12,939 bases of DNA, taken from an uncultured bacterium. GTDB taxonomy: Bacteria > Lernaellota > Lernaellaia > Lernaellales > Lernaellaceae. How positions within the stretch are numbered: the first letter of the stretch is position 1; each line of letters starts with the position of its first letter. The stretch covers positions 1-12,939 of the forward strand of contig CAZHPN010000041.1 of assembly GCA_964534375.1 (NCBI GenBank), given 5' to 3'. The notes under the pieces were generated by a model, which made no database searches, was not told the DNA's origin, and was given only the letters and a program-made list of their open reading frames with translations. Positions 2,225 to 12,939 of the stretch are shown in pieces. The position numbers were made by a program, and so were the translations under genes.

Positions 2225-5200
2225 CTAGGGGCCGTAGTACAGGATCGTCCCGCCGTCGCCCACGGCGAAAACATCGGACGGCGACGTTCCCCAGACGCAA
2301 TACAAGAATTCCGACGTGCCGCTGATCATCGCCGACCAGGATGAGCCGTTGTAATGGATGATCGTGCCGGAGTTACCAACGGCGAACACGTCCGATCCGG
2401 AACTTCCCCAAATAAACTGCATCCACTGAGTCGTGCCGCTCGACATCGTCGTCCACGAGGAACCGTTGTAGTGCAAAATCTCGCCGGATCCGCTGGGATT
2501 TGCCATAGTGCCGACCGCAGAGAATACGTTCGACGAAGAGGTCCCCCATAGGTTGTTGGACTCCACTCCTGTGCCACTCGACATCTCCGACCAGGATGTT
2601 CCGTCGTAGTGATATAATGCGGTCGAGCCAGCGACGAACACGTCTGAGGGAGCGCTTCCCCAAACGCCGTTTAAATTCGCCGGCTGGAGAGACGTCATCA
2701 TCCACCACGTCGAGCCGTTATAGTTCCAAATATCGGCGCCTGCAGACGTATTTCCGACTGCGAACACGTTCGAGTCAGAGCTTCCCCAGACACCGTTGGA
2801 TTCGTATCCGGTTTCTGTTGCCATCGTCGACCACGAGGAGCCGTCGTAGTGATGAAACCCTCCGCTGCCGTCGACCGTGAACACATCCGAGGCGGTGAAT
2901 CCCCATACGCCGGTCAGACCCGCGTTCGTCCCGCTCGTCATCGAAGTCCACGAGGAGGCTTTGTATTGCAGGATCGTGCCCGAGTCGCCGACAGCAAACA
3001 CTTCCGAGTCAGCGCTTCCCCAAACGCCGTGCAAATTCGCCGACGTGCCGCTCGTCATCGGCGACCATGAAAGCGCGTGGCATTGCTGCGAGTCGCACAT
3101 TTTGCTTGCGCCGCAATTCACGCACGCCGCGCCGCCGCTGCCGCAGTTGACGCCCGTGGTTCCCCCATAGCAGGCGCCCCCGGCGCAGCAACCCGCCGCG
3201 CAATTGTTGGCATTGCACGTCTCGTCGCCGGTTGCGCCGCAAAGCACGAACGCGGTGCTTGGATCATCAACGCCAGCAGATTTCACGTCGCGCCACGTCG
3301 AGCCTAGTTCAAAACCGCCCGCAGGGTTGATTAGTTGGGCGTCGTTCGGCGCCGCTGCGGTCGAGCAATACGGGCCCCAGAAACCCCAGGAATCGGACGC
3401 GGCCGTCGCCGCACAGACAAGCCAATAGGTTCCCGCCGCCAGCGTCGGCGGCGACACGGGCGTAAACACGAAACTGGAGTCCCAGGTGTTGCCGGCATCC
3501 AAATCGTAGGTGGAGACAAGCTTAACGTTTGCGCCGGCGGGCGCCGAGGTTTCATACCACAGGGGCGTCCCGCCGCCGTTCGGGACGCCTGCTGGCACGC
3601 CGCTCGCATCCGCGTAGATCCAGCAATCAATGGTGGTCGCTGCCGCGAGCGTCGAGAACGATCCGCTGCTGTCGGCCCATCCGTCGCCCCAAATAGCTAA
3701 TCCCTGGACTTGCCAAGATTGGCCGCTCGGTACCACGAAATCATCGGCCGTGTAACTCGTGTAGCCCCTGGGGTCGGATGAAAAAACGACAGAAAGAATC
3801 GCGCTTGCGGTCGGGCCCGTATTGACATCGTTATGACCCAGCACTGCGGTGGCCCCACACAGGGGAACGCACAGGCCGTTTTGGCAGTAATCTGTCGCTA
3901 CGCACGGGAGGCAGTCCTCCCCGTTCGCGCCGCAAAACGCGGCGGCCGTGCCGGGCATGCACACGGCCCCGGCGCAACAACCGGTGGAGCAGGTCGTGGC
4001 GTTGCATTCGCATTGGCCGCCGGTGTCGGGGTTGGTGACGGCGCAGACCGCGCCCGGACCGCACGAAGCGCAGGCCGCGCCGCCCGCGCCGCAGACGTCG
4101 GCGGTCTGGTCGGCGTAAGAGGTGCAGGCCGAGCCGTTGCAGCAACCGGTCGGACAACTAATTGCGTTGCATGCATCGTTGTCATTGTTGTCATCGTCGT
4201 CGTTGTAGACGCTCGATTCCGTGCCGCACAGGGTGTAGGCAGTCGTGGTGTCCCCGCTGGAGAGGCCGAGTTCGCTGATCGGGATCCAGGTCGTGCCGAT
4301 GCCAAAGCCGCCCGGCGGGTTGATGATGTCTGCCGTGCCCACCTTCGCGGTCGACAAGAACGGACCCCACGGGCCAGGAGCGTACGTCGCCGACGCTGCG
4401 TTGCACTCGAGCCAGTACGTGCCGGCGGTGAGGGTCGGCGGGCTCGTGACCGCCATCGCGAAGCTCGACAGCCAGGTAGCGCCGCTGAGCGGGTCATACG
4501 TATCATAAAGCGTGATGGCCGCCGAATCCGGAGCACTCGACTGAGTCCAGGTCGGCGTCCCGGCGCCGCCCGGCGTTCCGCTCGGCTGGCCGGATGCATC
4601 CGCGTAAATGTAGCAACCGAGCGATGTCACGTTGGCCAACGTCGAGAACACGCCCGGAGGGGTCGTCGCGCTCCACGTCCAGCCGTCGCCCGGAATGTAC
4701 ACGGTGTCGATGGTCCAGGACGCGCCGGTCGGAACGACGAAGCTCTGGGCCACATACGCGGTCAGGCCCGAGCCGTCCGTCGCGAACGATTCGCAAATGA
4801 TCGAGCCGGCGTCAGACGACGGGTCGGGAGCGTTCGCCGCAAGTTGCGTGTCGCTTCCGCAAGTGAAGGCCGAATCGTCGTTGTCGTCGTTGTCGTCGTT
4901 GTCGTCGTTGTCGTCGTCGTTGTCGTCGTTGTCGTCGTTGTCGTCGTCGTCGTCGACGGTGTCGTCGTCAACCGGCGGCGAGGTGTCGTCGTCAACCGGC
5001 GGCGAAGTGTCGTCGTTGTCGTCGCTGTCGTCGTTGTCGTCGTCGTCGTCGTCGGTCGGCGAGGTGTCGTCGTCGACGGTGGGCGACACGTCGTCATCGT
5101 CGTCGTCCGTCGAGACGTCGTCGTCGTTGTCGTCATCATCGTCTGTCTTTTGATACGCCTTGCTTTGCGAGTGGGAAAGATCGAGGCACGAGGCGCCAAA

Positions 5201-5275
5201 AGCCAACACAGCCAAGAGCCCGATGGTCGTGATGACAACTGCCTTTCGCGTTTCGTTCGACCTATTGCCTGACAC
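2225..5275 (-). CDS. Large modular surface lipoprotein (~1016 aa): Asp-rich stalk, two ~200-aa repeated beta-rich domains, three Cys-rich modules, C-terminal 7-blade beta-propeller
   Basis: Start reassigned to GTG at 5275, preceded by GGAGG just after the upstream stop. Lipobox AFGAS|C. Repeated domains at ~4213-4870 and ~3228-3866 (FVVPxGxSW...IxGDGW...STLA...YADASGxPxGxP...PPTLxAGTYWLxC...INPxGGF). Seven xWxxMxSG...GVWGS..SxVFAVG...HYxG blades at ~2228-3070. Confidence 0.9.
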   Translation of the reverse strand: MSGNRSNETRKAVVITTIGLLAVLAFGASCLDLSHSQSKAYQKTDDDDDNDDDVSTDDDDDDVSPTVDDDTSPTDDDDDDNDDSDDNDDTSPPVDDDTSPPVDDDTVDDDDDNDDNDDNDDDNDDNDDNDDNDDSAFTCGSDTQLAANAPDPSSDAGSIICESFATDGSGLTAYVAQSFVVPTGASWTIDTVYIPGDGWTWSATTPPGVFSTLANVTSLGCYIYADASGQPSGTPGGAGTPTWTQSSAPDSAAITLYDTYDPLSGATWLSSFAMAVTSPPTLTAGTYWLECNAASATYAPGPWGPFLSTAKVGTADIINPPGGFGIGTTWIPISELGLSSGDTTTAYTLCGTESSVYNDDDDNNDNDACNAISCPTGCCNGSACTSYADQTADVCGAGGAACASCGPGAVCAVTNPDTGGQCECNATTCSTGCCAGAVCMPGTAAAFCGANGEDCLPCVATDYCQNGLCVPLCGATAVLGHNDVNTGPTASAILSVVFSSDPRGYTSYTADDFVVPSGQSWQVQGLAIWGDGWADSSGSFSTLAAATTIDCWIYADASGVPAGVPNGGGTPLWYETSAPAGANVKLVSTYDLDAGNTWDSSFVFTPVSPPTLAAGTYWLVCAATAASDSWGFWGPYCSTAAAPNDAQLINPAGGFELGSTWRDVKSAGVDDPSTAFVLCGATGDETCNANNCAAGCCAGGACYGGTTGVNCGSGGAACVNCGASKMCDSQQCHALSWSPMTSGTSANLHGVWGSADSEVFAVGDSGTILQYKASSWTSMTSGTNAGLTGVWGFTASDVFTVDGSGGFHHYDGSSWSTMATETGYESNGVWGSSDSNVFAVGNTSAGADIWNYNGSTWWMMTSLQPANLNGVWGSAPSDVFVAGSTALYHYDGTSWSEMSSGTGVESNNLWGTSSSNVFSAVGTMANPSGSGEILHYNGSSWTTMSSGTTQWMQFIWGSSGSDVFAVGNSGTIIHYNGSSWSAMISGTSEFLYCVWGTSPSDVFAVGDGGTILYYGP
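4875..5141. repeat. Low-complexity in-frame repeats (GAC/AAC 3- and 9-bp units; DDDTSP[P/T] units) encoding the poly-Asp stalk
   Basis: (tcgtcgttg)n at 4875-4940 and repeated gtcgtcgtcaaccggcggcga units. Similar tracts at ~1821-1890, ~1998-2040, ~4174-4205 and ~6781-6886. Confidence 0.9.
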
Positions 5276-5285
5276 GCCGCCCTCC

Positions 5286-6503
5286 CTACCAAGCGATGGC
5301 CAAAGCAAGATGCTGTCGACCAGCCGCTGGCCCATAGATAAACGCCGCCTTAATGTCTCTGTCGCTGTAGACGAACAGTGGAATTGCCGCGATCAACGAG
5401 GCCCCGCCGATACTGAAGGCCGCCCCGAGAACGGCTTCGTCCGTAGGCACATCACGAGCCGCGGCATTCGCAACCTTCTTGGACGGCGTGTTCTTAAACA
5501 ACTGGTAATTATACGCCAGTACGGCAGAAAACCCGATGCCGGTCCCGATGCCGGCGATGGCAATGCCCGTGCAGGCCCAGGCTGCCGCGCGCATCGATTG
5601 ACGCGACGATGCAGGTTGAGGGCCTTTTGCCGTCGGGACCGTACCCGACCCGTCGGCTGGCGGCGCCGCAAGGGCGGCCACCCTTGCAGAAACCGAGTCT
5701 TGGTCCGCGGGTGGCTGCGCAGCGCTCGTCGCGCCGGCCAACACGGCCATCACCCGCGTCGTTTCGCCCTCGCTGATCTCAACCCAATCAGACCACAATT
5801 TATCTCCCGCGCGAATCTCAACCCGGCGACGGCCAAGGGCAACCTTGAATTTGCCGGGCGAGCGCCCCACTTCAACCCCGTCCACCCAGACTTCGGCCTC
5901 GATGGCATTGCCGTTGCCGTCCTGAGCGGAAACAGAAAATGCGCCGCTTGCGGCCGGCGTCACTGGAACCGTTCCGGTTTCCGGCGCGGCCTCGGCGGCC
6001 GGGGCTCGGGCGAGGATCTTGTCGAAAAGCACCGCCTCGGCGTCCCGAAATGCCTCTTCCAAATCCCGGCGTGTCGCCCCTTCCGCGGGCTCGGCGGCGA
6101 GCTGCTCCCCGCGGCCAACGTCAATTGCCCGGAGCTTCGCTCCGAACCGCCCGGCGGCCCCAGCAATTTCACCGGTGATGATAAATTGCGCGCCGATTCG
6201 CCGTCCCATTTCGACCTCGCAAGCCAGCACCCCGCCGCACTTGCTCACGTCGGCCCCATCGGGCGCTCTTCCGACGATCTCCTGCCGCGACATGACGGAA
6301 AACCCGCGCGCGCCCAACGTCGAGACGGCGGCGTCGCGAATCTCGTCAGTCAGCACACGGCCGTCCTCGTCGCCGCCCCCCGCCCCACGCGACAGATCCA
6401 GCACCGCGACCTTCGATGCGGCCGCGGCCGTCGCCACGAGTACCGCGGAAAACATGAGAGTCGCAACAACAACGAAACCGCATTTTCTCATTTCGATCCG
6501 CAT
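5286..6503 (-). CDS. Secreted PEGA-domain protein (~405 aa) with N-terminal CsgG/TolB-N/DUF2380-like alpha/beta domain and hydrophobic C-terminus
   Basis: Start reassigned to ATG 6503 (GGAGG upstream; TTG 6509 is an alternative). Signal peptide ...FSAVLVATAAAA, then KVAVLDL...GFSVMSRQEI...C...CEVEMGRRIGAQFIITGEI. PEGA-like AEVWVDGVEVGRSPGKFKVALGRRRVEI, two Gly-rich hydrophobic segments, and a final alternating strand ending in W. Confidence 0.82.
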   Translation of the reverse strand: MRIEMRKCGFVVVATLMFSAVLVATAAAASKVAVLDLSRGAGGGDEDGRVLTDEIRDAAVSTLGARGFSVMSRQEIVGRAPDGADVSKCGGVLACEVEMGRRIGAQFIITGEIAGAAGRFGAKLRAIDVGRGEQLAAEPAEGATRRDLEEAFRDAEAVLFDKILARAPAAEAAPETGTVPVTPAASGAFSVSAQDGNGNAIEAEVWVDGVEVGRSPGKFKVALGRRRVEIRAGDKLWSDWVEISEGETTRVMAVLAGATSAAQPPADQDSVSARVAALAAPPADGSGTVPTAKGPQPASSRQSMRAAAWACTGIAIAGIGTGIGFSAVLAYNYQLFKNTPSKKVANAAARDVPTDEAVLGAAFSIGGASLIAAIPLFVYSDRDIKAAFIYGPAAGRQHLALAIAW

Positions 6504-6519: not shown

Positions 6520-6984
6520 TCAAACACATTTTCCGGTTTTACAATGCGTGCCCCCACCGCACGCCACGCACGGCGCCCCGTCCGTGCCGCAGGAATCGTC
6601 GTTCGGCGAAGATACGCACGTCGTGCCGCCGCAACATCCGGCGGAGCAATTCGTACAGCGTGGACTGGGGTCATCCTCGCATTTCTTGCCTTCATGCCAA
6701 GGGAACGATCCGCACCCTTCTTTCTCCGTGTCGCTGCAAGAGGCCAACGCGCAGCAAGCGCCGGTCGGCGGCGGGGTGCTGTTGTCGTCATCATCATTGT
6801 GGTCGTTGTCGTCGTCCGGTTTATGGCTGTCGTCGTCGTCCGGTTTGTGGCTGTCGTCATCGTCGTCCGGCGAGGTGTCGTCGTCGGCGAGAATTCCGGA
6901 ACCGCCGTCCCCAAGGCAAGCGGCCAGCGAAAGCAGCGCGATGGTCAAAAGCATCAGTAACGCCCCCAAGAAAACTTTTTTCAT
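6520..6984 (-). CDS. Small Asp-rich/Cys-rich lipoprotein (154 aa)
   Basis: Start reassigned to ATG 6984 with AGGAG 7 nt upstream. MKKVFLGALLMLLTIALLSLAA|C lipoprotein signal, a DDDTSPDDDDDSHKPDDDDSHKP linker and two Cys modules. Confidence 0.88.
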   Translation of the reverse strand: MKKVFLGALLMLLTIALLSLAACLGDGGSGILADDDTSPDDDDDSHKPDDDDSHKPDDDNDHNDDDDNSTPPPTGACCALASCSDTEKEGCGSFPWHEGKKCEDDPSPRCTNCSAGCCGGTTCVSSPNDDSCGTDGAPCVACGGGTHCKTGKCV

Positions 6985-7036
6985 CGCCTTACTCCTGGAC
7001 TTCCGGCTCTGGCCCGCGCTTTCCGCGCGGCCGCAA

Positions 7037-8785
7037 TCAGGAAACGACCCTATACCGCACCTCCCGAAAGATCTTTTCGCCCTCCGGCGCCTCTGCGAGT
7101 TTCTGGCGAATCTCCGCTTGCAGGGCCCGATGCTCTTCACGGCCGAGCGCTAGCACGGCTTCCGTCGCGGTTCTTTTATCTGGCCAAATCGGCTTTTTCG
7201 CCGCGATGAGTTCGAACCGGTTCTCGCCGGCCGCCACCGGCCGCCACCGGACGGGAAACGCCGCGCCGGGCAAAACGTGGGTCATGCCGCCCAGCAGAAA
7301 ACCGTCGCGGGCGTAGCAATTGGGGAACATGACCTGTGCGTCGCCATCGCTCTCGCGGTTGAGAATGATCAGATAAACCGACCAGTTCGATTTGACGCAC
7401 AGGTGCAATTCACGTCCCACCGGAACGGTGTAAACCGAAGTTCCCGAGTTCTGCACGCTGTCGTGGGGCGTCGCCCCGTCGACGGACGACGACAGCCAAA
7501 CCTGCATTTCGATGCCGGCGGCCGGCGCAAGCGAGCCGCGCGCCGGCGTCGGCGGCAGCGACGGCGCCGCCGGGCCGTCGTCGGCCACGTACGCCCGCAG
7601 CGGCGGGATGACGTTGGCTTCCAGGTTCTTTATGGTCGACTTAAAATACGGCGTCTTCGACCCGGCCGGCGCTATCGGCAACGAAAACGGCCCGGGCGCC
7701 GGCGCGGCTTTGGCTTTCATCTCTTCGACGATTTCGCAATATTGATTCAAGGCCATTTCGAAATTGGCCTGGTGGATGGCCAACGCCGCTTTGAAATTGT
7801 CCCGGGTTTTCTTGAAGTGATTCGCCGCGGCTTTGGCGGTTTCCTGTTGCACGTAAGTCGCGCCCTTTTCCAGCCCCTCGCTCATTCGGCGGCGCGATTC
7901 TCTTCGATATTGAAAAACGGTCGTGCCCAATGTGATGATCAGGGCCGGCGGCAAGCTGAACTTAAAAAATTCTGCGCGCAACCTGAAATCGCCGCCGCCA
8001 ACGACGTAGGTGAATATGAAACTCAACGTAAACAACTGACCGATGATATATTGCAAGTTGGCCCTAATGACACTCCAGAATCCGATCTTGTCAATTCGGT
8101 AAGCCAAGGCGGGCGTCTCCAACGGTGGCACGGAAAACGCGAAACGAGGCCGGAGTTTGATGCCCGCGGGAATGCCTTTCTTCTTCGCGAAGGCTTCTGC
8201 CTGCTGCAACTGACCGGAAAGATCCTTTTGCAGACACGAGTTGATGCGGTCGGCCGTTTCCGTGAACTGCCGTCTCACCAAGCGATCGAGCGCCGCGGCA
8301 ACCTGTCGCCGCGTTGCCTCTTCCGGGCTCAACAGCACGACGCCTGGCTCGCCGCGCTGTACCGTTCGCAATTCCTTGACTGTATGGAGCACGTTTTCTT
8401 CAATTTGCAGGTCGCGTCGCGTCATTTCCATGACGCACAGCGCGATCTTGTCCTTGAATTTCGCGACGATTTTCTTGAGCAGCGGCGGCATGGCCGTCAA
8501 TTCCGCCAGGTCGTTCGCGGCCGTTGACGCCGGCGGGTCCGGAGCAGCCGCCAGCGGCGTCTGCTCCCGCAAGTCGGCGATGACCTGCTCGGCGGCGGCC
8601 AGCGCCATCCGATAGAGCCCGATTTTGTTCGCCGGCGAACTATCGGCGGCGCCGGCCATTTTCACCGCTTGCAATTCCGACAAAATCGTGCGCGTGCGCT
8701 GGGGCAGGCACGCGTCCAACCGCAAAGCCAGCAGAGCGCCTAGCGCGCCCACGGGCTCGAGTTTCATCACTGGCGGCTTCGTCAT
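7037..8785 (-). CDS. Helical membrane-hairpin protein with C-terminal DUF4384-like domain (~582 aa)
   Basis: Long ORF in operon register; start ATG 8785 or TTG 8791. Helical N-half, two hydrophobic segments at ~7907-8056, and Pro/Ala linkers. The C-terminal VGRELHLCVKSNWSVYLIILNRESDGDAQVMFPN...THVLPG...GENRFELIA matches the DUF4384 pattern as I recall it. Confidence 0.78.
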   Translation of the reverse strand: MTKPPVMKLEPVGALGALLALRLDACLPQRTRTILSELQAVKMAGAADSSPANKIGLYRMALAAAEQVIADLREQTPLAAAPDPPASTAANDLAELTAMPPLLKKIVAKFKDKIALCVMEMTRRDLQIEENVLHTVKELRTVQRGEPGVVLLSPEEATRRQVAAALDRLVRRQFTETADRINSCLQKDLSGQLQQAEAFAKKKGIPAGIKLRPRFAFSVPPLETPALAYRIDKIGFWSVIRANLQYIIGQLFTLSFIFTYVVGGGDFRLRAEFFKFSLPPALIITLGTTVFQYRRESRRRMSEGLEKGATYVQQETAKAAANHFKKTRDNFKAALAIHQANFEMALNQYCEIVEEMKAKAAPAPGPFSLPIAPAGSKTPYFKSTIKNLEANVIPPLRAYVADDGPAAPSLPPTPARGSLAPAAGIEMQVWLSSSVDGATPHDSVQNSGTSVYTVPVGRELHLCVKSNWSVYLIILNRESDGDAQVMFPNCYARDGFLLGGMTHVLPGAAFPVRWRPVAAGENRFELIAAKKPIWPDKRTATEAVLALGREEHRALQAEIRQKLAEAPEGEKIFREVRYRVVS

Positions 8786-8806
8786 CGCCAACGCAGCATC
8801 GCTTTT

Positions 8807-9838
8807 CTACCGGCCACGGCGGTGACCGCCGCCGGGATGAGGCGGCGGGTTTGGATGGTGAGCGGGCGGCGCAGGGTGATGCTGTGGCGCAGGGCCCGGC
8901 GGATGCGAACCTGGCCCTCCACCGTGGGCAGGACCGGCGAGATGCGAGTGATCCGGCTGGTGACCAGGGTCAGGATGGTGGCCGCCCGCGAACGGATGCC
9001 CGTGGTCGACGGCGTGGTCGATGGCGTGGTCAACGGCATCGCCAAGAGCGTGATCCAGCGCGACGCCGGCGCCGCCAAGGGCGTGATCGACAGCCGAACT
9101 CAAGGCTGCCGTAGCCGCGTTTTCAAGGTGTTCCGCCAACGGGCCGCCGGCGTCGGCGACAACCAGGTGCGCCTGTGCGGCGAGTTGCTGCTGCGCGGCG
9201 AGCAACTCGTTATGGAGATTTTGCGCCAGGCTCGCCAAGTGTTCGTGCGCGGCGTTTCCGGCATCGTGCAGGTCGGCGCTGATTTGCGAAACTGCCGCCC
9301 CGAGCGACGCATGCGCCTCGTGAACCGCCCGCTCCAGTTCGGCCAGATGGGTCTGGCCAGCCGTTTCGAGTTGGTGGTTCCACGTCGAAAACACTTGTTG
9401 CAATTGCTCGTGATGATGCGCGACGGCTTGCTCCAACTGTTGCGCATGGTTTTCAAATTGCTGCGCCAAGTGTGCGACGGCTTGCTGGCCGTGGGCCTCG
9501 ATCTGGTGCATTGTCGTTTCCGAAATAGAGCGCAGGTGTTCCTGCAACGACTGCGCCTGCTGCGCCAGCAGGTCATGGGCTTGGTCGCCGTGGGTTTTGA
9601 TCTGCGCGACGATTTCCTGGGAGTGTTGTTCGGCCGCGTGAACGGCTTGTTGGATATGACCGATCTGCTCGTGCGCCGAGGACGCTGCGGCGCCGGCGGC
9701 GACCGCCCCGCCGCCTACCACCGCGGCAGAGCCAAGGCCCGCGCCGAGTTTGATCTTGTTCAGGATGCCGTCGGCCATAGCGCTGATCTCGTTCCACTTC
9801 GCGTAAAATTGCTCGATTTGCACTTTATCGATGTCCAT
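8807..9838 (-). CDS. His/Gln/Ala-rich 11-residue-repeat helical protein, paralog B (343 aa), with His/Pro-rich tail
   Basis: GGAGG 7 nt before ATG. Aligns without gaps to the neighbouring paralog over ~220 aa and has 13 hendecads from residue 79. Confidence 0.88.
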   Translation of the reverse strand: MDIDKVQIEQFYAKWNEISAMADGILNKIKLGAGLGSAAVVGGGAVAAGAAASSAHEQIGHIQQAVHAAEQHSQEIVAQIKTHGDQAHDLLAQQAQSLQEHLRSISETTMHQIEAHGQQAVAHLAQQFENHAQQLEQAVAHHHEQLQQVFSTWNHQLETAGQTHLAELERAVHEAHASLGAAVSQISADLHDAGNAAHEHLASLAQNLHNELLAAQQQLAAQAHLVVADAGGPLAEHLENAATAALSSAVDHALGGAGVALDHALGDAVDHAIDHAVDHGHPFAGGHHPDPGHQPDHSHLAGPAHGGGPGSHPPGPAPQHHPAPPAHHPNPPPHPGGGHRRGR

Positions 9839-9879
9839 CGTCTGCCCTCCCTGTTTCGCGTTCTGCCGTCAACGACGTC

Positions 9880-10644
9880 TCACCATTTTCTGATCAGATG
9901 ATCGACGAGATGGCCGACCCCGGCTTCGACCGCGCGCCCCGAAAGATCCTGCAGCACGTCGCCGGCCCCGGCCGTGGACTGCGCGACAACCTGCTGTTGC
10001 GCGGACGACAACGCGCTCTGGGCGCTTTCCGCCAGTTGCGTCAGGCGGTCGTGCTCGGCCGCCGCCGCGGCCTGCAAGTTGTTGTGCGCCTCGGAAACCA
10101 TCGCCCCGATCGTTTCCTGCGCATGATGGATCGCCTGTTCAATCGTTTCGAGATGATGCTGGCTCTGCGTTTCCAACTGCTGAATCATTTGCGCAGAGAC
10201 TTGTTGCAATTGTTCATGGTGATGCGCGATGGTCTGCTCCAATTGTTGCACGTGCGTCTCGAATTGGTGCGTGACCTGATTGGCCAACTGGTTGCCGTGC
10301 GCGTTGATCTGGTGGAGCGTGGTTTCGGAAACGGACTGCAGGTGCTCTTGCAACGACTGCGCGTGCTGAACCAGCGCCTGGTGCGTTTCGTCACCGTGCG
10401 TCTTGACCTGGGCGATCATCTCCTGCGAATGCTGCTCCGCGGCGTGGACGGCGTCGTGAACCTGCCCGACTTGGTGGTGCGCCACGGCTGCCGTGGCGCC
10501 GGTCGCGACCGCTCCGCCGCCCGCGAGGGCCGCCGCGCCGACGCCGGCGCCTTGCTTGATCTTCTTCAGGATTGCGTCCCCCAGCGCGCTGAACTCGTTG
10601 TACTTCGACAGGAAGTTCTCAATCTGCTCTTTGTCGAGTTCCAT
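9880..10644 (-). CDS. His/Gln/Ala-rich 11-residue-repeat helical protein, paralog A (254 aa)
   Basis: GGAGAGGG upstream of ATG. Clear paralogy with 8807-9838 (AVHAAEQHSQE, KTHGD, AQSLQEHL, SETT, AHHHEQLQQV conserved) and 13 hendecads. Confidence 0.88.
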   Translation of the reverse strand: MELDKEQIENFLSKYNEFSALGDAILKKIKQGAGVGAAALAGGGAVATGATAAVAHHQVGQVHDAVHAAEQHSQEMIAQVKTHGDETHQALVQHAQSLQEHLQSVSETTLHQINAHGNQLANQVTHQFETHVQQLEQTIAHHHEQLQQVSAQMIQQLETQSQHHLETIEQAIHHAQETIGAMVSEAHNNLQAAAAAEHDRLTQLAESAQSALSSAQQQVVAQSTAGAGDVLQDLSGRAVEAGVGHLVDHLIRKW

Positions 10645-10670
10645 TGCTCATCCCTCTCCCTTTTGCCCGA

Positions 10671-11972
10671 TCAAAAGGCAAAAGAAACCATGAGATCGAG
10701 GACCTCATGGCCGGTTGCAATCTTCGGCGGGGTACTGTCCCCGTACAAACTCTTGTTGTTCTGAGCTAGCGACGCGCCAACAGGAAATTGATGTTCGAAA
10801 CTGGCGTCGATTGCAAATATCTTGTACTGACCGCCAATTCCGGCGGTGAGGCGAGTGCCGCTCGAAAGCGCCGGGGCAAACAACAGGCTGTTTGCGAACT
10901 GCGAGCCGTAATTAGCGCCTAGGCGCAAGGCCAAGGGACGAATCGGGTTGTACTGCACGCCGCCCGCGAGTGTGGTTTGTGGCGACCAGTGGAGCGGGAG
11001 AGCCAAATATGCCTCGTTCGAGCCCCGACTCGAGTTGAGCGTGAAGTCGGTTCGCAAATAATGATAATTCCAATCAATCCATCCGACGTCCAGGCCCAAT
11101 AGCACGGTGCTGCCGATTTCGGCAGCAACGCCGCCGCCGATACGGAAAGGCAACGGCAGCGAGAATCCCGCCGGTGGTGAGACACGAATTGATTCGGGAA
11201 CCGTGGCCAGGGAAAAATCGTGGTTCAGGCCGGTGATCGTCAAATTGCGCATGAATTTGAACGAGTAAATCGGGGTGGTTGCGGCAAGCCCGAAGCGCAA
11301 CCATCTCAACGGCATGAACAGCAAACCCTCCGTCAACCCAAGACTGGGCGTGTTCGGGCTGTAGCCGGTGTCGGCTTCGACAGAGTAAAGACCGCTGACC
11401 GGTGGCGATCGCTTTGGGAGCGTGACGTATTTGTCCGCCATGACCGTTCGAAAACCCATGTTCGCCATTTCCAAGTACGGCGACAGGCCGATGCCCAACC
11501 ACTCGACCGGCTGATATGCGACCACAGGCGCGATTCGGTAAGCGTCATAACGAGAATAGAGGCTGTAATCAGATGTGAGATCGGTTCGGAAAAAATGCCT
11601 CGCGGTCGTGAAGATGCCGCCTCCGAGGACAACTGGCGCCGTCTCCTTGCCGAACCGATGACAATACGCCGCATTCGGACCTCCTCCGTACAACTCGGGA
11701 GTCCCCGTGTGCTCGCCGTTGTCGCGCTGTAACGTCGGATTTTCAAACGTCAAGAATCCACTGATGTCTATGCGGTTGCCCACCTGCATCACCAGACCGG
11801 CGGGGTTCACAGCGATAGCCATGGCGTCCGTCGGGTTGCCGATCATCACGCCGCCCAGGCCGTGGGACCGGGCGCCGAAAGCGATGGGCAGAAAACCGTC
11901 CTCGCCACGGGCGGCCGTCGCCGTCGCCGCGACCAAGCAAACAGTAAAGAGGACTGTCGAAAAATGTTTCAT
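10671..11972 (-). CDS. OmpP1/FadL/TodX-family outer-membrane transporter (433 aa)
   Basis: GGAGG RBS and Sec signal peptide. The N-terminal GARSHGLGG...DAMAIAVNPAGL carries the FadL NPA motif. Alternating beta-strands, C-terminal Phe (VSFAF), and a typical size. Confidence 0.85.
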   Translation of the reverse strand: MKHFSTVLFTVCLVAATATAARGEDGFLPIAFGARSHGLGGVMIGNPTDAMAIAVNPAGLVMQVGNRIDISGFLTFENPTLQRDNGEHTGTPELYGGGPNAAYCHRFGKETAPVVLGGGIFTTARHFFRTDLTSDYSLYSRYDAYRIAPVVAYQPVEWLGIGLSPYLEMANMGFRTVMADKYVTLPKRSPPVSGLYSVEADTGYSPNTPSLGLTEGLLFMPLRWLRFGLAATTPIYSFKFMRNLTITGLNHDFSLATVPESIRVSPPAGFSLPLPFRIGGGVAAEIGSTVLLGLDVGWIDWNYHYLRTDFTLNSSRGSNEAYLALPLHWSPQTTLAGGVQYNPIRPLALRLGANYGSQFANSLLFAPALSSGTRLTAGIGGQYKIFAIDASFEHQFPVGASLAQNNKSLYGDSTPPKIATGHEVLDLMVSFAF

Positions 11973-11987: not shown

Positions 11988-12939
11988 CTATGACCCGTCC
12001 CCAGTGACAACCGTCTTCTTTTTCGCCGACGCGGGCGGCTGCTCAGAATTTGCTGGCGGCGATTCGGGCGCTTTCGGGACCGGCAATATCGGCGCGGCGA
12101 CGGTCTGGGCGGCGGGCAACGGCGCCGGAGCCCTCTTCAAAGGCTTTGGGTGCACGGGACCGGCGACCGCGGCCTGTTTCTCGGCGTTGTCTCCAACATT
12201 TCCGGCGGCGGCTGGCGCAGGCGCGGCGGGTGCAGGCGCGGCAGCCTCCGCATCGGTCGCCGGCGACGGCGGAATTGCCAACACGGCTGGAGCCTCGGGC
12301 GCGGACGCCTCAGTCAGCGTGCGCCCGGACAACCGGTAATAAACGCTTACGGCGACAACAATCAACAACGCCGCGGCCATCGTCAGGAAGAATCCGATGG
12401 CGATCTTCGTTCCGAGCGGCCGCGCGGGCTTCGTCGGCGCGGCTCGCCGCTTGGCCATGGCGGCCATCATTGACGGTGTGATGACTCGCTGCTGTTTCGC
12501 CGTCGCAGGTCCAACTTCCCGCGGGACAATCTGGACCCCATCCCAACGGCCAGTGATGACTCGCTGCTGGTTCGCCGTCGCAGGTCCAACAGCCTGTACC
12601 TGTTTCGCATTTGCCTGCGTCGGAGCGGGCGCCGGCTGCGGGAACACAATAGGCGGTTCAGGTTTCGCCGCCGCCGGAACGGGCGTCGGTTGCGGGAACA
12701 CGATGGGCGGTTCGAGCTTCGTCGCTATCGGAACGGGGGCCGGTTGCGGGAACACGGTGGTCTGTTCGAGATTCGTCGCTATCGGAAAGGGCGCCGGTTG
12801 CGGGAACGCGATCGTCGGTTCAGTTTTCGTCGCCGGAGGCGGGAGCGCGGGGAATGCCAAGACGGGCGGCGGTTCAGGTTTTGCCGCCGGAGGCGGGAGC
12901 GCGGGGAATGCCAAGACGGGCGGCGGTTCAGGTTTTGCC
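11988..12939 (-). CDS. Pro-rich repeat, single-pass membrane protein; 5' truncated (could be the tail of a Ser/Thr kinase or other signalling protein)
   Basis: Frame is open to the window edge. 18-aa Pro-rich repeats, then a basic patch KRRAAPTKPARPLGTK followed by the TM segment IAIGFFLTMAAALLIVVAVSVYY and a Pro/Ala-rich tail. Stop is 15 bp before the FadL start. No catalytic domain is visible. Confidence 0.75.
   Translation of the reverse strand, partial: AKPEPPPVLAFPALPPPAAKPEPPPVLAFPALPPPATKTEPTIAFPQPAPFPIATNLEQTTVFPQPAPVPIATKLEPPIVFPQPTPVPAAAKPEPPIVFPQPAPAPTQANAKQVQAVGPATANQQRVITGRWDGVQIVPREVGPATAKQQRVITPSMMAAMAKRRAAPTKPARPLGTKIAIGFFLTMAAALLIVVAVSVYYRLSGRTLTEASAPEAPAVLAIPPSPATDAEAAAPAPAAPAPAAAGNVGDNAEKQAAVAGPVHPKPLKRAPAPLPAAQTVAAPILPVPKAPESPPANSEQPPASAKKKTVVTGDGS
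12478..12590. repeat. 38-bp direct repeat, 75 bp apart, encoding VGPATA[N/K]QQRVIT
   Basis: 12478-12515 and 12553-12590 differ at one base. Confidence 0.88.
12615..12939. repeat. 54-bp in-frame tandem repeat, at least 6 copies (two exact copies at 12831-12938)
   Basis: Peptides AKPEPPPVLAFPALPPPA x2, TKTEPTIAFPQPAPFPIA, TNLEQTTVFPQPAPVPIA, TKLEPPIVFPQPTPVPAA, AKPEPPIVFPQPAPAPTQ. Confidence 0.9.

Follow-up and report, generated by a model that had tools for sequence, protein, structure and literature searches.

The b subunit of F-type ATPases carries an N-terminal membrane anchor, and some bacteria possess a paralogous b and b' pair. According to the part of the source consulted, the E-G peripheral stalk of A-ATPases is a hendecad right-handed coiled coil and the b dimer of F-ATPases is a predicted one (PMC3293630). 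Here we describe two adjacent paralogous genes, A and B, whose products are predicted to form long helices on the same 11/3 (hendecad) register. They lie on contig CAZHPN010000041.1 (C41), a 12.9-kb stretch analysed as a whole and referred to below as the window, which comes from an uncultured wetland bacterium whose metagenome-assembled genome totals 6.3 Mb and is 94% complete. We tentatively propose, giving the idea somewhat less than an even chance, that the two proteins build a hendecad coiled-coil rod tethered to a membrane, with an apolar stripe flanked by His that would make its assembly pH- or metal-dependent.

Like A and B, rotary ATPases' peripheral stalks (E-G, b2 and b/b') are long helices on a hendecad register; the consulted part of that account has the stalk helices nearly parallel and right-handed. 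Unlike the stalks, A and B have no listed match to ATP-synt_B (PF00430 is absent from the 18 families listed by Pfam for A or B at E ≤ 1), and the window contains no atp or other ATPase genes. They also differ from the stalks in being rich in His and Gln and poor in Lys and Arg, and in placing a 30-residue helix ahead of the hydrophobic segment. Hendecad and other 11-mer helix proteins are already known; A and B are set apart by their orphan status, length, perfect phase and His-for-Lys chemistry. It is uncommon for a natural helix to hold a perfect 11/3 register over more than 140 residues.

Hendecad register and architecture of A and B

An earlier note on this DNA had parsed both proteins from residue 79 into 13 consecutive 11-mers without gaps, each with an aliphatic residue at position 2. 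Both statements were confirmed: the parse is gap-free in the two proteins, and position 2 is Ile, Leu or Val in 13/13 units of A and 13/13 of B (26/26). The span assigned to the repeats fits the genes, 10410 being the first base of A codon 79 and 9176 lying within B codon 221. Ile, Leu, Val and Met make up 21% (A) and 20% (B) of the segment, which puts the probability of reaching 13/13 by chance in any of the 11 phases at ~2e-8 for A and 7e-9 for B. The hydrophobicity spectrum of residues 79–221, computed as a Fourier check of the expected ~3.67-residue periodicity, peaks at 3.66 in both proteins. At 11/3, A reaches a power of 193.5 (z = 20.7) and B one of 178.7 (z = 17.8), where shuffled sequences average 9 and 0/2000 attain the observed value; the highest peak at any period over 300 shuffles was 94 and 105. 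No heptad signal was detected in these residues of A or B, the power at 3.5 being at background. When all 17,982 stop-to-stop open reading frames (ORFs) of at least 150 amino acids in the six frames of the 6.3-Mb genome were ranked by 11/3 power, A came 1st and B 2nd, followed by the antisense frames of A and B in 3rd and 4th place; the next unrelated ORF reached 135, and the 99.9th percentile was 101. The count of exactly 13 units holds only in part: 13 units are present, but the register is longer, nearer 16 units than 13, with the 11/3 phase keeping within ~65 degrees in windows that begin as early as ~residue 46 and end as late as ~232.

Mean Kyte-Doolittle hydropathy (A/B) is 4.0/3.9 at position 2, 1.1/1.2 at position 6, 0.35/0.92 at position 9 and 0.17/0.76 at position 5, and is negative at the remaining positions. 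Positions 2, 6, 9 and 5 correspond to the a/e/h/d set of hendecads, occupied by apolar or small residues; only a is strictly aliphatic, h includes three conserved His, and Gly is conserved at e (G84 and G117). Tandem Repeats Finder reported no 33-bp period, and the repeats are not DNA-level copies of one another. Self-similarity at offsets of 11, 22, 33 and 44 residues is modest (z = 3.6–5.1), with the best offset at 33 (z = 4.6 and 5.1). The periodicity is therefore structural and does not reflect recent repeat expansion.

The continuous helix claimed in the earlier note was also recovered in both AlphaFold2 models, which draw a single long helix (residues 48–223 in A and 46–227 in B; ~176–182 residues; predicted local distance difference test score, pLDDT, ~75–89 in the core). 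With a helix rise of 0.15 nm per residue, its predicted length is ~26–27 nm. In both proteins it is preceded by a 30-residue N-terminal helix, which carries aromatic residues and 4–5 Lys/Arg, and by a Gly/Ala segment (residues 31–56) with a central GGG, whose best 19-residue Kyte-Doolittle window averages 1.43–1.45 (A/B).

A and B are 48% identical by BLASTP (E = 1e-64) and align free of gaps across residues 1–222. This ungapped paralogy accounts for their equal repeat number, so the length-matched heteromer or molecular ruler that had been read into it is not needed. That 222 codons contain no indel at all at dS > 1 speaks mildly for constraint on the register. Past residue 222 the two diverge: B has ~30 extra residues, a second predicted helix (234–278) and a predicted disordered tail of 65 residues, and the final 32 residues of A fit B best at an offset of +30. 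Residues 226–343 of B include 20 His, 19 Pro and 20 Gly among 118; this His-rich tail looks like a metal binder and could plausibly serve as a metal-binding or wall-reaching extension.

Coding status and distribution of A and B

A and B are genuine genes, duplicated in tandem and confined to their lineage. Comparison of the 222 codons that align without gaps gives an A-B identity of 0.72 at codon position 1, 0.81 at position 2 and 0.50 at position 3, and the annotated frame has a ratio of nonsynonymous to synonymous divergence (dN/dS) of 0.27 with dS = 1.13, the lowest ratio and the highest dS among the six frames. The Shine-Dalgarno sites of both genes are GGGAG-type. The start of A is unambiguous, as its open frame (255 amino acids) exceeds the ORF by one codon only; that of B runs 10 codons further upstream than its ORF. 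Since the open frames reach just 1 (A) and 10 (B) codons upstream and Shine-Dalgarno sites are in place, the N-termini are fixed and neither protein has a signal peptide.

The plus strand carries two long ORFs with Arg-rich products, at 8822-9901 (359 amino acids) and 9898-10764 (288 amino acids), which mirror B and A and form a trap for gene callers. Either these could be the real genes or the whole region could be non-coding. The antisense ORFs match or exceed B and A in length, and exact look-up found neither A nor B, nor either antisense ORF, in a collection of 15 billion proteins. We consider this explanation exceedingly improbable: it is the sense frame that has the lowest dN/dS and the highest dS, the N-termini of A and B align starting at Met1 with a Shine-Dalgarno site before each, the antisense products are Arg-rich as is typical of antisense frames in GC-rich DNA, and ESM Atlas contains A letter for letter. 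A single 216-nt contig from a metatranscriptome library is identical to 9093-9308, within B; because such libraries can contain DNA, it is a weak hint that B is transcribed. Identical pieces of the locus are also present in DNA runs from two other wetland samples. Sequencing runs X6–X8 contain only small shares of the window, the X8 pieces being mostly dissimilar, and no inference on habitat or strain was made from them.

Relatives of A and B were sought at the protein and the DNA level. A word-indexed search of 5.8 billion clusters, an exhaustive profile search of 1.84 billion representative proteins and a PHROGs search returned 0 matches, and their own genome held nothing besides A and B at E < 0.09. 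Six-frame searches, which like those by tblastn are independent of gene calling, gave 0 matches in 40 other genomes and 0 in all 16 other genomes of the phylum examined. Pattern scans of genome and viral contigs likewise gave 0 matches, and those of metagenome contigs returned the same locus only (L021). A Foldseek comparison of the A model with PDB, one of the checks proposed in the earlier note, yielded no match at E ≤ 0.001. ESM Atlas gave no usable feature match for A or for residues 1–78 of B, and its structure rows all had template-modelling scores ≤ 0.40, matches that any long helix would produce. A and B are orphans, a single-genome, lineage-restricted family.

Neither protein has a confident full-length match to a characterised family. 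The best sub-threshold Pfam match is Apolipoprotein (PF01442; 34.5 bits for A and 30.7 for B, gathering threshold 90), followed by Phasin (PF05597; 20.2 and 12.1 bits, cut-off 28.8). Among PDB sequences ApoA-IV matches best (E = 0.06), and NCBIfam matches are to scattered coiled-coil regions far under their cut-offs. In PADLOC the best match is the ZorA tail (27.7 bits, E = 2.7e-7), along with coiled-coil arms of SMC-like proteins; the ZorA matches span tail positions of the profile only (e.g. 279–501 of 692). In the portion of the source consulted, the ZorA tail is a right-handed pentameric coiled coil that forms a 70-nm super-helical bundle on a membrane protein (PMC11946911). The ZorA tail resembles A and B in being a very long helix. 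Unlike ZorA, A and B lack a MotA/ExbB domain, no ZorB, ZorC or ZorD is encoded nearby, the neighbouring genes have no PADLOC match, the similarity is limited to the periodic helix, and the predicted rod measures ~26 nm against 70 nm. The weak likeness to ZorA and ATPase-stalk helices is what a hendecad register would give, and the apolipoprotein, phasin and ZorA-tail matches reflect shared periodicity; all of the family matches align one periodic helix with another, and none supports membership.

Composition, charge and possible roles of the helix

The earlier note had described the repeats as free of Pro and very poor in Lys and Arg, with His taking their place, and the counts agree: residues 57–225 contain 0 Pro and 2 (A) or 3 (B) Lys+Arg among 169, together with 21/22 His, 34/30 Gln and 18/19 Asp+Glu (A/B). 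For His+Gln richness A and B hold ranks 1 and 3 among the 17,982 ORFs. Fifteen of 22 His are common to the two proteins. The edges of the apolar stripe, at positions 5, 8, 9 and 10, take most of the His, and Glu and Gln fall at positions 3, 7 and 11, opposite the stripe. Having His for nearly all Lys and Arg would make this a ready-made titratable hendecad rod or 3-11 amphipathic helix. If His titrates with a pKa of 6.5, the rod would by calculation carry a net charge of ~-14 at pH 7.5, ~0 near pH 6 and +7/+8 at pH 5. Of the proposed charge switch by pH or metal, the pH half thus gains support from the calculation; the metal half is a suggestion from the composition. Pairing of His with His, Glu or Asp at i+3/i+4 shows no excess over shuffles (13 versus 13.7 and 11 versus 15.2), so no specific metal sites are indicated on the rod.

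A His at the edge of the apolar face makes the membrane interaction of LAH4-type peptides pH-dependent. In the part of the source consulted, these designed peptides are His-rich and amphipathic (PMC8160934). They are short and synthetic, unlike the natural helix of A and B with its ~175 residues and its Glu/Gln polar face.

In the coiled-coil rod that we propose, the N-terminal part of each protein would be a 30-residue amphipathic helix, and the uncharged 26-residue Gly/Ala-rich segment behind it would most likely keep the protein at the membrane. The remainder would form one unbroken helix of ~175 residues (~26 nm) on the 11/3 register, presenting a narrow apolar stripe in which a is always Leu, Ile or Val, d, e and h are small or mixed, His flanks the stripe and Gln/Glu lie behind it. 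Such a straight or slightly right-handed rod could self-associate along the stripe as A-A, B-B or A-B, and its assembly or surface binding should depend on pH and perhaps on divalent metals. Gating by pH would be expected because the rod has almost no Lys or Arg and ~13% His, so that its charge would go from -14 at pH 7.5 through neutrality at ~pH 6 to ~+7 at pH 5. B would contribute the Asp-His-repeat helix and the disordered His/Pro/Gly tail as an extension. We infer the membrane tether, the oligomerisation, the pH or metal gating and the link to neighbouring envelope genes, and with them the function of A and B.

Several observations favour the rod. The hendecad register is clear, with a spectral peak at 3.66, no signal at 3.5 and a constant phase from ~residue 50 to 230. 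The a position that is aliphatic throughout, the three conserved His at h, the 15 shared His, the single long helix of either AlphaFold2 model, the weak profile matches to other long coiled coils and the closely spaced envelope genes on the same strand also count in its favour. The small and Gly residues at e and d would suit close helix packing. Conservation between A and B is as high on the polar face (f 9/13, c 8/13) as in the core (a 9/13, d 8/13, e 8/13), a pattern suggestive of contacts on more than one face. Hendecad stalks that are anchored in a membrane and built of paralogous pairs are known and would provide a precedent by analogy.

Other points weigh against it. Oligomerisation is conjectural, and the AlphaFold2 models, computed for the monomer, show one isolated helix. 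The mean hydropathy of 1.43–1.45 in the Gly/Ala segment stays under the 1.6 usually taken over 19 residues as indicating a membrane span, so that the tether is uncertain. AlphaFold2 renders this segment as helix, GGG hinge and helix at pLDDT < 50 (A residues 32–53). His-acid pairs at i+3/i+4 are, as noted, not enriched. No relatives were found in which conservation could be compared, and as exact A and B are missing from the 15-billion collection, protein-level searches may under-sample such genes. Finally, the hydrophobic moment of the rod (0.33 and 0.35 for A and B), its hydrophobic fraction (0.36/0.41), its aromatic fraction (0.007/0.02) and its charged fraction (0.12/0.13) all fall inside the range of 11-mer helices that act on lipid surfaces (PMC5889406, Table 1).

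Because the values lie within that range, the same sequence features fit a helix of a different kind: a surface-coating amphipathic 3-11 helix, unfolded in solution, that folds flat on a lipid or other hydrophobic surface in the manner of apolipoproteins, perilipins, alpha-synuclein, late embryogenesis abundant (LEA) proteins or phasins. His would replace the interfacial Lys and switch on binding to anionic lipid at low pH. We hold this, the main alternative to the rod, to be rather unlikely for A and B, although the likeness extends to several features. Apolipoproteins, perilipin 11-mers and alpha-synuclein share the 11-residue period and have a similar moment and hydrophobic fraction; the moments tabulated are 0.39 for ApoA-I, 0.35 for Plin3, 0.30 for alpha-synuclein and 0.257 for Plin4 (PMC5889406, Table 1). 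Plin4 also has a 33-residue super-period, as in the top self-similarity offset of A and B, and the few aromatic and charged residues, the leading sub-threshold matches to Apolipoprotein, Phasin and ApoA-IV, and the sub-threshold FadL/TodX match of the upstream barrel candidate (a family of channels for hydrophobic substrates) point the same way.

Class A helices are built of 11/22-mers punctuated by Pro, with Lys/Arg at the polar-apolar interface. In A and B it is His that occupies the stripe edges where class A helices carry Lys (positions 5, 8, 9 and 10), with Glu/Gln opposite, which would suit the coating role. Against it, residues 57–225 have no Pro to break the helix and only 2–3 Lys+Arg. 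A and B further differ from apolipoproteins in their narrower stripe, their bacterial origin and the lack of a signal peptide. The strongly apolar part of the stripe is essentially a single position wide, polar-face positions are conserved as much as the core, and the family scores are far under the curated cut-offs (90 for Apolipoprotein, 28.8 for Phasin). With regard to a phasin-like role, the genome, which is 94% complete, yielded no polyhydroxyalkanoate synthase (PhaC_N). Whether the helix assembles as a rod or coats a surface, its His-lined edges would lead one to expect a switch at around pH 6.

The abundance of His would also be consistent with a metal store, buffer or chaperone, in which the His/Gln/Glu helix and the Asp-His/His-Pro tail of B bind Ni, Zn, Co or Cu. 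Metal-binding families of this description include the Hpn-type proteins and metallochaperones with His-rich tails. The 21 and 22 His per 169 residues, the 20 His in the 118-residue tail of B with its Asp-His repeats, and the genome-wide His+Gln ranks of both proteins would fit; storage would have no need of an aliphatic position kept invariant through a strict register of 143 residues, A has no His-rich tail, the helix shows the above-mentioned lack of enriched His-acid pairs, and Pfam and NCBIfam scans found no metal transporter or metalloenzyme gene in the window. We regard this role as improbable.

Still less probable, in our estimate, is a GvpC-like function in strengthening the exterior of gas vesicles. 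In its favour, a separate contig of the genome (C29) bears a cluster of gas-vesicle genes, both proteins are all-helical, and their best internal offset of 33 equals the 33 positions of the Pfam Gas_vesicle_C model (PF01304), a 33-residue repeat being the hallmark of GvpC. This model found no match at E ≤ 1 in a six-frame search of the genome, nor is it among the Pfam matches of A and B, which lie on C41 amid envelope genes and not in the gvp cluster. That cluster has a 142-amino-acid helical ORF of its own between gvpA and a gvpN-like gene, and G006, the sole other genome of the phylum that bears gvp genes, is without A or B (G006 being only 84% complete).

A bolder form of the rod can be imagined, in which a Lys/Arg-free, His-edged A/B heteromer in the inner membrane sends its ~26-nm rod across the periplasm toward the co-encoded outer-membrane barrel, and a charge flip at ~pH 6 makes it assemble or collapse with the acidity of peat or wetland, as a pH-gated trans-envelope tether or ruler; we rate it as decidedly improbable. 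If the pH or metal switch were true in any form, A and B would offer a compact model for the gating of straight or right-handed coiled coils or of perilipin-like coats, and a building block for protein design.

Neighbouring genes and other observations in the genome

A and B draw attention to a cluster of unstudied envelope genes in a wetland phylum that has barely been sampled (17 species genomes examined). The features of the locus are collected in Table 1.

Table 1. Coordinates of genes A and B, their parts and their immediate neighbours in the window
Feature	Position	Strand	Remarks
Outer-membrane beta-barrel candidate	10671..11972	-	Upstream neighbour; sub-threshold FadL/TodX and PorV matches
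Shine-Dalgarno-like GGGAGAGGG	10652..10660	-	7 nt ahead of the ATG of A
Gene A	9880..10644	-	254 amino acids, Cys-free; ORF list, dN/dS versus B
A residues 1–30, amphipathic N-terminal helix	10555..10644	-	Bears the aromatic residues of A and 5 Lys/Arg; hydrophobic moment 0.42
A residues 31–56, uncharged Gly/Ala-rich segment	10477..10554	-	7 Gly, 11 Ala; candidate membrane anchor or hinge
A residues 79–221, 13 hendecads	9982..10410	-	11-mer parsing
Shine-Dalgarno-like GGGAGGG	9845..9851	-	6 nt ahead of the ATG of B
Gene B	8807..9838	-	343 amino acids, paralog of A; ORF list, BLASTP
B residues 1–30, amphipathic N-terminal helix	9749..9838	-	AlphaFold2 and hydrophobic moment
B residues 31–56, uncharged Gly/Ala-rich segment	9671..9748	-	7 Gly, 10 Ala
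B residues 79–221, 13 hendecads	9176..9604	-	11-mer parsing
B residues 234–278, second predicted helix with Asp-His repeats	9005..9139	-	AlphaFold2
12-bp repeat, 3.1 copies, in the region encoding the Asp-His repeats of B	9001-9037		Tandem Repeats Finder
B residues 279–343, predicted disordered His/Pro/Gly-rich tail	8810..9004	-	65 residues; AlphaFold2
Protein with C-terminal DUF4384	7037..8791	-	Downstream neighbour; 584 amino acids; Pfam 36.1 bits (cut-off 27)

The genes near A and B are all on the minus strand, with 26 nt between the barrel candidate and A, 41 nt between A and B, and 15 nt between B and the DUF4384 gene. The barrel candidate scores 26.9 bits with Pfam Toluene_X (cut-off 29.7) and 39.2 bits with NCBIfam PorV_fam (cut-off 90). 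Further downstream lie a PEGA-domain protein with a signal peptide and three lipobox-type proteins, and the neighbours of A and B are envelope proteins (an outer-membrane barrel candidate, lipoproteins and a PEGA protein). The lipobox-like N-termini (LLGASC, AFGASC and LSLAAC) belong to the products of 1377-2174, 2225-5335 and 6520-7140 (all minus strand), which also have poly-Asp/Asn linkers and Cys-rich modules and match no Pfam or NCBIfam family. The second of these, with 1036 amino acids, contains an internal duplication of ~190 amino acids, and its C-terminal repeats of ~40 residues ('SSW..M.SGT...L.GVWG') look like a beta-propeller.

A 12-pair stem-loop with a T-rich run (10686-10712, minus strand) covers the last codons and stop of the barrel gene, 26 nt before A, and could be an attenuator or terminator between the two genes. 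Terminator-like sites in the region number 6 against 8.1 in shuffles and the sigma-70 scan gave 2 against 1.0, both at chance level; a sigma-54 promoter pattern had 9 matches against 6.1 expected (33/200 shuffles reach 9), none usefully placed. Because these promoter and terminator scans are at chance level, transcription units are undefined.

The gene that precedes the barrel candidate (11988-12938, minus strand; extended in the metagenome contig as L021:3-1280) encodes tandem Pro-rich units of ~17 residues (KPEPPxVF.QPA.PPPAA), one transmembrane segment and an Ala/Pro-rich tail. It runs off the contig and is still open at its 5' end in L021, so that this repeat is probably where assemblies break. 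Within the phylum the DUF4384 gene has a single homolog, in G006 (22% identity), which directly follows a gene for a Pro-rich single-transmembrane protein, with no barrel, A or B gene between them. An insertion of barrel, A and B between the Pro-rich and DUF4384 genes is no more than a suggestion, given that the Pro-rich proteins of the window and of G006 have no significant BLASTP similarity (E = 2.8).

The gas-vesicle cluster on C29 (~8000-30600) comprises three GvpA-family genes, a GvpN-like AAA_5 gene and genes for GvpF/L, GvpG and GvpK, and the region also encodes a CDC48-like AAA ATPase, a histidine kinase and CheR. The helical ORF of 142 amino acids between gvpA and the gvpN-like gene lies at L025:5853-6281 (L025 being C29:8000-24000); its kinship with A and B was considered and rejected, hhalign of the A/B profile giving a probability of 0.1. 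GvpA-family genes occur in 2/17 genomes of the phylum, the present one and G006 (C269, C135 and C338). G006 is also the sole genome with the DUF4384 homolog; with two genomes of one family, this co-occurrence may be mere shared ancestry. At the other end of the window, on the plus strand, a gene for an archaemetzincin-type peptidase (253-792; Peptidase_M54, 79 bits) adjoins the C-terminal Fis-type helix-turn-helix of a sigma-54-dependent activator (1-246).

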